From the sequence record MZ501087: a stretch of DNA of 47,731 bases. One strand, 5' to 3'. This document shows, piece by piece, positions 33,227 through 46,894 of this stretch; the first letter of the stretch is position 1; each line of letters begins with the position of its first letter. The notes under the pieces are model-generated. The model did not search any database. It saw nothing but the letters and a program-made list of their open reading frames with translations, and was not told the DNA's origin. A program made the translations under genes and the position numbers. This stretch comes from Escherichia phage JulesPiccard.

Positions 33227-34357
33227 ATGGCAACTGCAAAAATTACCAACGAAGAACTGCGCGAAGAACTGGCTAATGGCATGACCAACAAAGCTATCGC
33301 AGAGAAGTACGGAATGAATATTCGCAATGTCGAATTGCGTCGTAGTAAATTAGCTAAGAGTGGAGAGTTGCACGGAAACCCAGGTATCAAGAAGTTAGTT
33401 CCTGACGGTTATTTGGTCAAAGGTACGTCAACCATGATTGATGCGGATGGCAACGAGAAGATTCGCTGGGTTAAGACCTCAATTGATAATGAGCGACTTG
33501 AGGTTTTAATGGAGCAAGCTCGAGAAGCATTCTGCTCTGATTTGCCAAAAGCAGATGCGGTAATCCACTCAGGTAATGAGGTCAACTCTGAGTTAATGAC
33601 TCTTTACCCTATTTTCGATATCCATATTGGCATGATGGCGCATCGCCATGAGTCCGGCGAAAATTATGACACGAACACCGCTGAGAAATTAATGGGATCA
33701 TATTTTGACCATGCAATTTCCGTATCACCAGCCTCAGAGAAAGCCGTGATTTTAGTTGGTGGTGATTTCCTTCACTCCGATGGGTTGGAATCGGTAACTC
33801 CAGCAAGCGGACACTGCCTTGATCAAGATAGTCGATATGCCAAGTTAGTTTATGTTGCTATTCGCTCGATTCGTTGCGCCGTAGAGAAGATGCTTAAGAA
33901 GCATAAGAATGTCGAGATTCAGATTATAGAGGGCAATCACGACCAGAGTGGTATGATTTGGCTCCGTGCGGCAATGGCTGCATTTTATGAAAACGAGAAT
34001 CGCGTGTTTGTTGATACCAGTCCGGCAATCATGCACAAGACGCGATTTGGCTCAACATTACTTGGTTACACTCACGGTCACACCATGAAGAAAGCCGAGG
34101 GTAGACTTGCAGCAATGGCTACCGACTACCGCAAAGACTTTGGTGAATGTGAGTTTGTTTACTGCCACTCCGGCCATTTCCATCACGCAACTGTTACAGA
34201 GTGCACTCTTGGGATTGACGAGGTTCACCCAGCGCTGGCTAGTAAGGATGCGTATGCAGCTCGAGGAGGGTGGCGCTCATATCGCCAAGCTGCCGCAATC
34301 ATCTATCACAAGGAGTTCGGTGAGGTTGGTAGGCATATTTATCGCCCAGGCATGTAA
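33227..34357 (+). CDS. calcineurin-like metallophosphoesterase with N-terminal HTH-like region
   Basis: motifs DIHIG, GGDFLHSDG, EGNHD, GYTHGH, HSGHFHH; N-terminal MTNKAIAEKYGMNIRNVELRRSK. Confidence 0.6.
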   Translation: MATAKITNEELREELANGMTNKAIAEKYGMNIRNVELRRSKLAKSGELHGNPGIKKLVPDGYLVKGTSTMIDADGNEKIRWVKTSIDNERLEVLMEQAREAFCSDLPKADAVIHSGNEVNSELMTLYPIFDIHIGMMAHRHESGENYDTNTAEKLMGSYFDHAISVSPASEKAVILVGGDFLHSDGLESVTPASGHCLDQDSRYAKLVYVAIRSIRCAVEKMLKKHKNVEIQIIEGNHDQSGMIWLRAAMAAFYENENRVFVDTSPAIMHKTRFGSTLLGYTHGHTMKKAEGRLAAMATDYRKDFGECEFVYCHSGHFHHATVTECTLGIDEVHPALASKDAYAARGGWRSYRQAAAIIYHKEFGEVGRHIYRPGM

Positions 34358-40162: not shown

Positions 40163-40684
40163 ATGTCGAATCGAATTCAGCCAGTAAGCCTTGGTGATGT
40201 TATCCGCTACATGGCCAAGCAGGCACTTAAGACTGACAACCGAACTTTTCATGTCCCAATCCATCTTATAGCTCGCCAGGTGTACGGACTAACGTCTGAT
40301 GATATGGGCCGAATCAGCACTGAAGATCTCGAGACTGGTGGCAAATACAGCTTGGCAAAGTTGAAAGCGTCATATGTCTCTAACACAGTTGCAAGGATGC
40401 CGGAGATTCAGGAGGCGAACGTTCGGGCCAAGCTATCAATCAAGGACGGAGACTTCGGGGATGATGTTGATGTTCGATGCGCATACATCACCTTGGTAGA
40501 TGGGGCAATTCAGAAAGGAAAGAGAGTGAAGGCCAACAACCAGGTTGCAGAGAAGGCGGTGAACGACTTTAAGGATAGAATCCTCAAGCTAATGCCATCC
40601 GTGACTGAGTTTGAAGGAGGCGAGATCACTGGAGCCATTAAGGCAATTAAGATGTACCAGGAAATGATTAAGGAGACAAAATAA
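40163..40684 (+). CDS. hypothetical protein
   Basis: RBS AGGAG; sigma70-like promoter TTGATA-N16-TATTAT upstream. Confidence 0.5.
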   Translation: MSNRIQPVSLGDVIRYMAKQALKTDNRTFHVPIHLIARQVYGLTSDDMGRISTEDLETGGKYSLAKLKASYVSNTVARMPEIQEANVRAKLSIKDGDFGDDVDVRCAYITLVDGAIQKGKRVKANNQVAEKAVNDFKDRILKLMPSVTEFEGGEITGAIKAIKMYQEMIKETK

Positions 40685-41223
40685 TGGGGATGTTTGATTT
40701 TACCGAAGAGAAGCTGACAGATGAGCAGATTATGCAGATTGCTGCGCGGGATGGACTTCCTCCGCTACGAGTTGCAATCAATGCCAATGGATATCGCCAG
40801 TCTCAATCATTCTGGTGTAGTGTTGAGGAGTTGCTCTGCGCAAAGCTCGACAGCAAGTCGGGCGTAGTTGTGCTAAAAATTCACGACCAGAGCAGGAACG
40901 GTAAAGGGGTTGTAGGAATTAGATCAACATATGAAGCGCTGAGAAAGGTCAAGCCATTTGCCGGACTCAACGGAGTCATGCATGACCTGAAAAATAACAT
41001 CCTGCCATCGCTACAGGACGTAGGAATCATCTGCCTCATTGGAGATAAAATTTACGTGCATCCATACATCATTGGCATGCATGCGATAGAAGTTGAAGAG
41101 TGGTGCGACCCATGTCCTGCTGTTGAGCAAGATACTAGACTACCATACCACTTGCGTTATAGTGAGGAAGAGGTGGAGATGGCGATGGACTTGTATCGTA
41201 GATGGAATGCTGTTGGGAAATGA
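40684..41223 (+). CDS. truncated paralog of the 527-aa protein (N- and C-terminal segments only)
   Basis: N-terminus MFDFTEEKLTDEQIMQIAARDGLPPLRVAINANGYRQSQSFW and C-terminus RNGKGVVGIRSTYEALRKVKPF..CLIGDKIYV match ends of 36259..37842. Confidence 0.55.
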   Translation: MGMFDFTEEKLTDEQIMQIAARDGLPPLRVAINANGYRQSQSFWCSVEELLCAKLDSKSGVVVLKIHDQSRNGKGVVGIRSTYEALRKVKPFAGLNGVMHDLKNNILPSLQDVGIICLIGDKIYVHPYIIGMHAIEVEEWCDPCPAVEQDTRLPYHLRYSEEEVEMAMDLYRRWNAVGK

Positions 41224-41310: not shown

Positions 41311-41520
41311 ATGAAGATGGAAAATATTCGTATTGAAGATGTTTACGTTGACCAGGCTGAGGTCAGCATCACAAAAAGAGATCGTGGTGCCGTTGTATCT
41401 CTGGATTTCGACCCTGATGAATACGGAGATTGTCAGACGCTGATGCAATACAGTCCAGACCAGGCGCGCAAGCTGGCGGCGGCATTAATTCTGGCGGCTG
41501 ATGAGGCAGAGAAGCAATGA
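41311..41520 (+). CDS. hypothetical small protein (paralog pair member)
   Basis: C-terminus ARKLAAALILAADEAEKQ resembles next gene. Confidence 0.45.
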   Translation: MKMENIRIEDVYVDQAEVSITKRDRGAVVSLDFDPDEYGDCQTLMQYSPDQARKLAAALILAADEAEKQ

Positions 41521-41631
41521 GTAGTCATCACAATGAGCACGTAATGCAGCTCTACCGACATAATCTCAAGTCACTTGGTCGGTTGGGTAGGTAAAATAAC
41601 GGGCCTTTACAGGCCCATTTAGAGGTGTTAT

Positions 41632-42377: not shown

Positions 42378-42417
42378 CACGATTTGTTAAAAGGGGATTC
42401 ATCCTGACTGGTATAAT
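42375..42417 (+). promoter_or_regulatory. conserved promoter/operator element
   Basis: TAGCACGATTTGTTAAA-N22-TATAAT. Confidence 0.55.
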
Positions 42418-42450: not shown

Positions 42451-42990
42451 ATGAATCAGATGTACACCATGATTAAGCAACACCTGAACACCGAGGCAAT
42501 CAACAAGCCAGTCTACGTGTTTGACTACGACGGCACGCTGTCGGACGGATCGCATCGCTTGCATAAGTTGCCGACAAAGGATTTACACCTCACTGAGTCA
42601 TGGTCTGAATTCAATCGACTGTCAGAATATGATGAACCTATCGAATCAACCATTCAGGTGATGAATAGCCTGTACGACTCTGGCGCATACATCATCATCC
42701 TAACCGGGCGGTCAGACGAGGTGTGTGAAATTTCGACTCAGTGGCTTCATGATGCTAAAGCAAAATATAACGTAATGGTCATGCGCCAGGCTGATGACAA
42801 CAGAAAGGATACAATCATCAAAGAGGAGTTCTTGCGCTACATTGGCTTGCATCGAATTACGGCAGCATTCGATGATAGCCCTAACGTGGTTGCGCACTTC
42901 CGAAGCCTGGGCATCACTACCTATCAGGTTTGCGACTATGGCGATAAGCTACACGCTGGAGTCGGATCGCATGGCGTTCATCATAAGTGA
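42451..42990 (+). CDS. HAD-family 3'-phosphatase (T4 Pnk phosphatase-domain-like)
   Basis: FDYDGTL (DxDGT), IILTGR, RKDTIIKEEF, AFDDSPNVV collinear with the T4 polynucleotide kinase C-terminal domain as recalled. Confidence 0.65.
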   Translation: MNQMYTMIKQHLNTEAINKPVYVFDYDGTLSDGSHRLHKLPTKDLHLTESWSEFNRLSEYDEPIESTIQVMNSLYDSGAYIIILTGRSDEVCEISTQWLHDAKAKYNVMVMRQADDNRKDTIIKEEFLRYIGLHRITAAFDDSPNVVAHFRSLGITTYQVCDYGDKLHAGVGSHGVHHK

Positions 42991-43110
42991 CGATATACGA
43001 ACATAAATTCAGTAGCAGGGGTATTGATATGCTCCTGCACTATGTAGACGAAAAATACGCAAATCTCATGCTTAAGACGCATGGTGGCACAATAACGAGG
43101 ATTAACATCA

Positions 43111-43743
43111 ATGGCTAAAATAATCATTCTTAATGGACCGGCAGGTATTGGAAAGGACACTATCGGAAACGCGCTTGCAGCAGATTACAATTGCAACCTG
43201 GTAAGTTTCAAGCGTCCTATGTTTGATATCGCATCCTCAATACTAGGCGCTTTAGCCTTCAGCAAATTCATCACCGCTTATAATGACCGAGATCAGAAAG
43301 AGCGTCCTCAGGAATTTCTTGGTGGAAAGACATGCCGTGAGTTCATGATCTGGATTAGCGAATCAGTAGTTAAGCCGCTTTTAGGCGATAGGCAGTTCGG
43401 TAAGTTGATGAGCGAACATATCCAGATGCGTGACGAAGGCTTTACGTTTGTTTGCACTGATGGCGGTTTCCCTGATGAGGTTATTCAGCTAGTGGAAGAT
43501 GGACACGATGTTACCCTTGTACGCTTATTTATGGATGGTAAGACATTCGCTGGCGATAGTCGTGATTACATCCGAATCAAGGAATCGCACTTCCCTGATT
43601 ACCATGCCTACCAGGAGCATGATGTTCATCTAGTCAATGGTGATATTTATGGCGGTGTTCTGTCGGTAGCTGATGCTTGCGGTATTGGCTCACCAGTTCC
43701 AGAGGTTGATGTTTACGAGTGGGAAGATGGATTACCCTGGTAA
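43111..43743 (+). CDS. P-loop nucleotide kinase (dNMP-kinase-like)
   Basis: N-terminal IILNGPAGIGKDT P-loop at residue ~7. Confidence 0.5.
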   Translation: MAKIIILNGPAGIGKDTIGNALAADYNCNLVSFKRPMFDIASSILGALAFSKFITAYNDRDQKERPQEFLGGKTCREFMIWISESVVKPLLGDRQFGKLMSEHIQMRDEGFTFVCTDGGFPDEVIQLVEDGHDVTLVRLFMDGKTFAGDSRDYIRIKESHFPDYHAYQEHDVHLVNGDIYGGVLSVADACGIGSPVPEVDVYEWEDGLPW

Positions 43744-43819: not shown

Positions 43820-44011
43820 ATGATTACAATTAACCTGTCAGAAGAAATGGCTGCTGACCTTATTGATTCACTAAGCCTGGTTAAAATTCGATACGGGACT
43901 TACAACAGAAGCGAATCAATAAAGGAAGTGGTAAAGCAAGTTAAACAGCAGGTCGAAGCGGCCAAAATCGAATTGCAGAACACCCCATACGATTTTAATA
44001 AAGGTGAGTAA
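43820..44011 (+). CDS. hypothetical small protein (tandem paralog 1)
   Basis: MITINLSEEMAADL. Confidence 0.45.
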   Translation: MITINLSEEMAADLIDSLSLVKIRYGTYNRSESIKEVVKQVKQQVEAAKIELQNTPYDFNKGE

Positions 44012-44012
44012 G

Positions 44013-44231
44013 ATGATTACAATTAACCTGTCAGACAAGCAAGCAGCAGAACTTAAATCCATGTTATCAATCTTTGAGAAGCCAAATGACCGAGCAATTG
44101 CAAAAGAGGTTATCTCTCAGATCAACAACCAGCAATTCGACGTCAGTGACTTCGAGTCATCACGTCAATATGAAGCGATGAGTGTCAACGCTGCATACCT
44201 GGTTAACTGGGATAAGGCGACTAAGCAATGA
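44013..44231 (+). CDS. hypothetical small protein (tandem paralog 2)
   Basis: MITINLSDKQAAEL; RBS AAGGTGAG. Confidence 0.45.
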   Translation: MITINLSDKQAAELKSMLSIFEKPNDRAIAKEVISQINNQQFDVSDFESSRQYEAMSVNAAYLVNWDKATKQ

Positions 44232-46816: not shown

Positions 46817-46894
46817 GCTCTGCTAGCTCAATTGGATAGCAGCAACGACCTTCTAAGTCGTAGGTTACTGGTTCGAATCCAGTGCGGAGCGCCA
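46817..46894 (+). tRNA. tRNA-Arg (anticodon UCU), CCA encoded
   Basis: 7-bp acceptor stem GCTCTGC/GCGGAGC (one G-U), anticodon stem ACGAC/GTCGT with loop CTTCTAA, T-arm ACTGG-TTCGAAT-CCAGT, D-loop with GG, 3' GCCA; D-stem has only 3 pairs. Confidence 0.75.

Follow-up and report, generated by a model that had tools for sequence, protein, structure and literature searches.

The complete genome of Escherichia phage JulesPiccard (sequence record MZ501087; 47,731 nucleotides, the whole of which is the window of this analysis) is that of a T1/Rtp-like coliphage of the Drexlerviridae; the terminase genes come first, and the layout is collinear with that of Rtp-like Drexlerviridae. We analyzed two consecutive genes in its early-gene region, ahead of the packaging genes on the circular map. 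The first is predicted to encode a phosphatase related to the phosphatase domain of T4 Pnkp, the PseT protein, and the second a P-loop kinase of the deoxynucleoside monophosphate (dNMP) kinase family:

42451-42990, plus strand: predicted stand-alone Pnkp-type HAD 3'-phosphatase of 179 amino acids, in an open reading frame (ORF) bounded by stop codons
43111-43743, plus strand: predicted P-loop kinase of the gp1/T5-type (d)NMP-kinase family, 210 amino acids, in an intact ORF

The phosphatase and the kinase

An earlier note on this DNA had described the 179-residue protein as collinear with the phosphatase domain of T4 polynucleotide kinase, with its motifs in the same order, and this description was borne out. 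The protein matched the Pfam model HAD_PNKP (PF25109) with 70.7 bits (cut-off 27.6; E 1.9e-19) over profile positions 4-139 of 143, matched phrog_415 (E 3e-63) and was collinear over its whole length with residues 136-297 of T4 PseT (reference sequence from NC_000866), at 27% identity (BLASTP, E 7e-13). When PDB was searched by sequence, the only matches were Pnkp1 and T4 Pnkp, in each case through the phosphatase domain alone, and the same two domains were the closest solved folds in a fold search. The C-terminal HAD phosphatase of T4 PseT/Pnkp (PDB 1ltq, 5uj0) and Capnocytophaga Pnkp1 (4xrp) are the systems closest to the JulesPiccard enzyme. The motifs DYDGT (D25/D27), TGR (T85/R87), RKD..KEE (R118-K119-D120..K124-E125-E126) and DD (D141/D142) follow one another in order, and their residues are invariant or nearly so in an alignment of 19 sequences from Drexlerviridae, Kagunavirus-like phages, RB49, a P1-like plasmid prophage, two fusion proteins and T4. 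Their PseT counterparts are D165/D167 (for D25/D27), S211/R213 (T85/R87), K253/D254/K258 (K119/D120/K124) and D277/D278 (D141/D142). Invariant in this alignment are D25, D27, R36 (= T4 R176), R87, R112, D116, K124 and D142; D120 is at least 90% conserved, and position 141 is mostly Asp with a few Glu. The residues that we take, from the mutational literature, to be essential in T4 Pnkp, namely D165, D167, R176, R213, D254, D277 and D278, align to D25, D27, R36, R87, D120, D141 and D142. Compared to T4 Pnkp, the JulesPiccard phosphatase stands alone, and its subfamily has an additional, strongly conserved stretch of about 14 residues between motif I and motif II (HRLHLLP..ESW.EFN). The polypeptide contains no Pnk-type 5'-kinase domain, its alignment being limited to the PseT segment given above, and a search of the JulesPiccard genome with the PseT kinase domain returned nothing significant. 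According to these sequence comparisons, the 42451-42990 product is predicted to be a Pnkp-type HAD 3'-phosphatase that is devoid of a kinase domain.

Stand-alone members of the same subfamily also occur in other settings. Besides a complete PseT and RnlA, phage RB49 encodes a second, stand-alone phosphatase of the JulesPiccard type (ORF229c; L085:3998-4474), which shares 36% identity with the JulesPiccard enzyme, as compared to 27% for T4 PseT. The ORF229c start codon lies within the end of nrdB, a nucleotide-metabolism gene. This overlap is a hint that the second phosphatase does something other than repair tRNA, even though rnlA and pseT are only 2-4 kb away. A P1-like plasmid prophage (MH445380.1; L086:3959-4465) harbors a further stand-alone member, 35% identical to that of JulesPiccard, beside pmgS, with no adjoining kinase gene annotated in the region shown.

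The next gene had been described in the earlier note as encoding a P-loop kinase, and this too holds. The ORF is annotated as a 'putative P-loop NTPase protein' (Escherichia phage JulesPiccard; 100% identity), and the P-loop GPAGIGKDT occupies residues 9-17 of its product (GIGKDT, 12-17). No Pfam or NCBIfam model reached its cut-off, and the protein matched phrog_139, 'deoxynucleoside monophosphate kinase', with E 1.2e-40. From 2,451 relatives collected in an exhaustive HMMER search we built an 81-sequence alignment, in which N8, G14, K15, D16, R76, S83, E84, K88, F120, E123, D149 and R151 are invariant; the JulesPiccard kinase retains all of them. In profile comparisons (hhalign), this family aligned with T4 gp1 over essentially the full length (gp1 2-237; E 2.3e-6, probability 89%) and with T5 Dnk over the N-terminal 50 residues only (probability 96%), and it met T4 PseT solely in a 26-residue P-loop region. 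Searches of PDB by sequence, with the single protein as well as with the profile, matched AAA+ proteins and adenylate kinases through the P-loop alone (1dek at E 0.015) and were uninformative, such that a fold search was needed; here, gp1 was the closest solved fold. A 5'-kinase of the type found in the N-terminal part of T4 Pnk was not recovered, since there was no similarity beyond the P-loop and Pnk was not the closest fold.

The dNMP-binding residues of gp1 have been tabulated (PMC10653934, Table 2), and we mapped them onto the kinase by aligning its family to gp1 and T5 Dnk with MAFFT, at an identity to gp1 of about 14%. The gp1 residues R68, R132, M135, W152 and D175 fall on R60, R76, M79, F96 and D117 of the kinase, and Q178, E181, D204 and H206 on F120, E123, D149 and Y153. 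Apart from M79, which is not conserved, the mapped pocket positions are invariant or at least 90% conserved across the family, and the two arginines that hold the acceptor phosphate in gp1 are conserved. Like gp1 (PDB 1dek/1del), the kinase has a GxxxxGKDT P-loop, and like T5 Dnk it has SF(K/A)xP, SPR and D..F..E motifs, the shared motifs being visible only when MAFFT is run with the whole family. Unlike gp1, it lacks a 36-residue insertion and has a lid motif of its own, GD..SR.Y, which is invariant. At the position of the Pnk general base, the family appears to have no conserved acidic residue, as far as an alignment of such low identity can tell. Because the acceptor-phosphate arginines are kept and a conserved general-base acid of the Pnk type seems to be missing, a nucleotide monophosphate would fit better than a 5'-OH end as the acceptor. 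As judged from these comparisons, the 43111-43743 product is predicted to be a nucleotide kinase of the T4 gp1/T5 Dnk type, and the dNMP kinase that the earlier note had offered as an alternative is the better-supported half of its proposal.

We found no assayed member of this kinase subfamily in the literature. By its published description, PP_1964 of Pseudomonas putida (dNMPK-Pp) is of the same gp1-like class: it is a phage-derived kinase that gives dTMP kinase activity in vivo, and it has 44 phage homologues, mostly in phages of Enterobacteriaceae (PMC10653934). In contrast to the JulesPiccard gene, PP_1964 resides in a genomic island replacing tmk and not beside a phosphatase.

Linkage and fusion of the two genes

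Gene neighborhoods were examined, within flanks of ±5-6 kb, at 81 kinase loci, comprising 80 IMG/VR contigs and phage ETEP102, and at 79 phosphatase loci. In 67 of the 81 kinase loci, a phosphatase gene preceded the kinase gene on the same strand at a distance of 9-2,171 nt. Conversely, the kinase gene was found downstream on the same strand in 78 of the 79 phosphatase loci, Rtp being the sole exception, and often at a distance of 5-12 nt, which is typical of translational coupling. The linkage holds to about 40% identity (42-84% kinase identity) in several phage groups, and it extends beyond the Drexlerviridae to K1ind-like siphoviruses and Erwinia phage S2. In addition, there are two natural fusion proteins, in which an N-terminal HAD_PNKP domain and a C-terminal kinase are joined by a common conserved linker with the motif GPELHG. 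One fusion occurs on 3 contigs, including a 60.7-kb phage contig, and the two shown come from different samples. Given this conserved synteny and the natural fusions, the phosphatase and kinase genes are functionally linked. The JulesPiccard-type kinase differs in this respect from gp1 and T5 Dnk, as it is almost always encoded beside, or fused with, a Pnkp-type phosphatase.

A strong linkage of this kind weighs against the view that the two proteins have separate jobs, with the phosphatase acting in 3'-end healing or counter-defence on RNA or DNA, the kinase being an ordinary dNMP kinase, and the two genes being mere neighbors among early accessory genes. In favor of that view, each family assignment stands by itself, and the genes are found alone: Rtp has a phosphatase, with an Stp-like gene nearby, and no kinase; DTL has a kinase and no phosphatase; AugustePiccard has a kinase with a 24-residue phosphatase remnant. 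IME253 has neither gene. The kinase family is also widespread without the phosphatase, which was absent from the fetched flanks in 14 of the 81 kinase loci, and under the kinase match, some phage records name just a dNMP kinase or a hypothetical protein. Two unconnected functions are nevertheless difficult to reconcile with a linkage seen in all but one of the phosphatase loci, at constant order and strand across that range of kinase identity and phage groups, with intergenic gaps as small as those noted above, or with two independent fusion proteins having a common linker. Moreover, the same nuclease gene, described below, is linked to both the unfused and the fused arrangement. We regard separate jobs as less probable than the salvage explanation given below, though as more probable than a split Pnkp.

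The nuclease gene lies 8 kb from the pair in JulesPiccard:

33227-34357, plus strand: Mre11/SbcD-like metallophosphoesterase of 376 amino acids ('DNA repair exonuclease'; phrog_704, E 7e-151)

Its product gave a weak match to Pfam Metallophos_2, and in the alignment it displays the motifs DIHIG, GDFLHSD, GNHD, HGH and GHFHH, which we take to resemble those of Mre11/SbcD nucleases. The N-terminal segment looks like a helix-turn-helix. In several other phage lineages the gene directly adjoins the pair; it comes immediately before it in 27 of the 81 loci collected with the kinase and in 38 of the 79 collected with the phosphatase, and on the 60.7-kb contig a homologue (L170:9340-10500; 41% identity, E 7e-105) is positioned immediately downstream of the fused gene. 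Because of this adjacency in other phages, the metallophosphoesterase is a probable functional partner of the phosphatase-kinase pair. The same order of exonuclease, 'PNK' and dNMP kinase has been described for phage KanT1, where it was read as extending nucleotide supply (PMC13164509).

Within JulesPiccard, the two genes would constitute a small early-region module that is probably co-transcribed. Two candidate signals flanking them were read from the DNA:

42409-42417, plus strand: possible extended -10 promoter element, TGgTATAAT, 34 nt before the phosphatase start codon
43763-43783, plus strand: weak hairpin resembling a terminator (CCGC-TCCG-GCGG, then a T-rich run), just past the kinase stop codon

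A promoter and terminator scan around the pair yielded nothing convincing. The promoter consensus scan, for which both hexamers must be present, missed the element at 42409-42417, and the terminator scan was silent at the hairpin, whose fold is no better than that of shuffled sequences (z -0.47). In ETEP102, where the homologous phosphatase gene is called longer, a promoter is annotated close to the 5' end of that gene and may correspond to the TGgTATAAT element; a terminator is annotated directly after the homologous kinase gene. The spacer between phosphatase and kinase genes measures 120 nt in JulesPiccard. We discounted a 43-residue ORF located in it (42987-43118), since relatives have a spacer of 5-50 nt. 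Further upstream, the plus-strand early gene at 40163-40684 encodes a DUF7174 protein (Pfam E 5e-51), and the adjoining gene at 40684-41223, on the same strand, matches phrog_7327 and, less strongly, a 'DNA helicase' PHROG at its C-terminal end. Downstream of the kinase, the small plus-strand ORFs at 43820-44011 and 44004-44231 have near-identical starts (MITINLSEEMAADL.. and ..MITINLSDKQAAEL..) and look like a tandem duplication; the product of the second is 68% identical to Rtp rtp7.

The Stp homologue, ligases and the tRNA gene

Two further features of the region were considered in relation to nucleic-acid repair:

41517-41594, plus strand: homologue of T4 Stp, 25 amino acids (MSSHHNEHVMQLYRHNLKSLGRLGR), 857 bp upstream of the phosphatase gene; its membership of the module is uncertain
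46817-46894, plus strand: tRNA-Arg(tct), anticodon UCU, 3.07 kb downstream

The earlier note had suggested that a split kinase/phosphatase pair close to a phage tRNA gene may be a nucleic-acid end-healing or counter-defence module, and had pointed to the healing of cleaved tRNA by the fused T4 enzyme. In one form of this idea, the two genes would represent a Pnkp split in reverse order, in which the phosphatase clears 3'-phosphates or 2',3'-cyclic phosphates and the gp1-like kinase has been recruited for 5'-OH ends. RNA or DNA broken by host defence nucleases, for example by PrrC triggered by the phage Stp, would thus be healed, and then be sealed by a host enzyme or an unknown partner. The phosphatase, as a full member of the Pnkp phosphatase clade, suits such a role well, and the near-obligate adjacency together with the natural fusions recreates the domain content of Pnkp. 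Bacterial Pnkp uses a metallophosphoesterase domain for end healing, and the linkage of a metallophosphoesterase gene to the pair is a further parallel. The kinase does not fit equally well, as its profile meets T4 Pnk over the P-loop region only, most dNMP-pocket residues of gp1 are conserved in it, including the two acceptor-phosphate arginines, and a conserved acid at the Pnk general-base position appears to be missing. Compared to T4 Pnkp, the partner kinase is of a different type and is encoded downstream instead of being fused upstream.

The Stp homologue shares 17 of 25 residues with T4 Stp (68%; tblastn E 5e-9 within the genome), and its ATG overlaps the stop codon of a preceding 69-residue ORF (ATGA). 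Its presence in the same early region lends weight to end healing. By inhibiting the EcoprrI restriction enzyme, Stp activates the PrrC anticodon nuclease, and in T4 the damage is then repaired by PseT and Rnl1 (PMC2610378). In keeping with such a function, the 'polynucleotide kinase' of T1-like phages was proposed in the Stevie genome note to mitigate anticodon nuclease (PMC4319613), and the co-occurrence of Stp and this 'polynucleotide kinase' in T1-like phages is thus already in the literature. JulesPiccard resembles the T4 circuit of Stp, PrrC, Pnkp and Rnl1 in having an Stp homologue and a PseT-type phosphatase within 1 kb, whereas it has neither a Pnk-type kinase nor a recognizable RNA ligase. 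Furthermore, Stp is found within 5-6 kb of the pair in a minority of loci only: an Stp-like ORF lies 0.6-2.6 kb upstream of the phosphatase in 15 fetched IMG/VR kinase loci (15/81) and within 5 kb in 11 of 79 phosphatase loci. In Rtp, an Stp-like gene is situated 450 bp downstream of the phosphatase. The homologue upstream of the JulesPiccard phosphatase keeps the counter-defence idea alive for this enzyme; a split, T4-like pair healing cut tRNA was not supported.

No RNA or DNA ligase was recognizable in the complete genome, including one of the Rnl1 type, although a novel small ligase is possible. Every ORF of at least 250 residues is otherwise assigned, mostly by Pfam and for the rest by synteny with the annotated relative IME253; these assignments comprise terminase, portal, protease, capsid, tape measure, tail proteins, a RecE-like nuclease, primase, helicases and the metallophosphoesterase. 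Searches of the genome with T4 Rnl1 and with T5 LigA/LigB (tblastn) gave noise only, and the annotation of IME253 lists no ligase either. Healed DNA nicks could be sealed by LigA of E. coli. The E. coli RNA ligase RtcB, however, joins 3'-phosphate to 5'-OH ends, and healing those ends would be counterproductive by working against it.

The proximity to a tRNA gene, to which the earlier note had pointed, proved to be weak. IME253 has the same tRNA-Arg(tct) and is without the pair, and no tRNA was found near the pair in other lineages; the association was rejected on these grounds. In 18 long ORFs of JulesPiccard, AGA makes up 75 of 384 Arg codons, a share far above that of E. coli, in which this codon is rare. 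Codon supply is hence enough to explain tRNA-Arg(UCU), which probably provides for a host-rare codon. With the tRNA being independent, the kinase of the gp1/T5 type and a ligase not recognized, we consider a split, reverse-order Pnkp to be unlikely.

Proposed DNA-precursor salvage and competing explanations

We favor, at a probability of about one half, the explanation that the phosphatase and the kinase act together as a DNA-precursor salvage module, or in DNA-end processing that is coupled to salvage. Starting from the observed family assignments, the tight linkage and the fusions, we infer the substrates and the order of the pathway as follows. Breakdown of host DNA would deliver 5'-dNMPs, which the kinase would convert to deoxynucleoside diphosphates and the host nucleoside-diphosphate kinase to the triphosphates. 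The phosphatase would strip 3'-phosphates from DNA ends and from 3'-phosphorylated deoxynucleotides, turning pdNp into pdN, the substrate of the kinase. Removal of 3'-phosphates might also unblock ends for the Mre11/SbcD-like metallophosphoesterase, the products of which would be channelled to the kinase. We lean toward salvage because RB49, despite its complete PseT and RnlA, still carries the extra stand-alone phosphatase overlapping nrdB, because the KanT1 paper independently reads the pair as serving nucleotide supply (PMC13164509), and because no ligase was recognized in the complete genome.

Several observations weigh against salvage. The phosphatase keeps the whole active site of a polynucleotide end-healing enzyme, and its sequence gives no sign of a preference for mononucleotides. 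In the kinase, gp1 R177 and K37 are without direct counterparts (G119 and F38), and the lid carries instead an invariant S150-R151 that is the family's own, such that its acceptor site is not identical to that of gp1. The phages Rtp, DTL and AugustePiccard demonstrate that the two genes can occur alone, and the Stp homologue upstream of the phosphatase points to PrrC biology. Finally, we know of no physiological source of 3'-phosphorylated DNA products in T1-like infections.

The same set of genes could also be viewed, with low probability, as a nucleic-acid end-processing machine that operates without a ligase, composed of the phosphatase, the gp1-like kinase and the metallophosphoesterase, in which an enzyme of the dNMP-kinase family has replaced the 5'-kinase of Pnkp non-orthologously. 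The replacement would be visible as the natural fusions of reverse order, and T1-like phages would use the machine to counter defence nucleases that leave 3'-phosphate and 5'-OH ends, including the Stp-triggered PrrC, with a host enzyme performing the sealing. If true, this would amount to a new architecture for nucleic-acid end healing and to a new counter-defence. Only a slight chance is given to other small-molecule substrates, such as 3'-phosphorylated signalling nucleotides.

Both genes belong to families that are already widely annotated, with 2,900 phage records matching the phosphatase and 1,433 the kinase, and the novelty of the finding is modest for this reason. The phosphatase is routinely labelled 'polynucleotide kinase', which is misleading because the protein has no kinase domain, and which suggests a tRNA-repair enzyme that is absent. 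The BASEL paper makes no mention of the phosphatase or kinase genes. The BASEL collection offers natural variants, with both genes in JulesPiccard, only the kinase in AugustePiccard and only the phosphatase in Rtp. Together with the metallophosphoesterase, the pair makes up a simple three-gene module in a well-studied phage family. Labelling its members as a Pnkp-type 3'-phosphatase, a dNMP-kinase-type partner and a linked nuclease would describe them better and would avoid over-reading these phages as being proficient in RNA repair.

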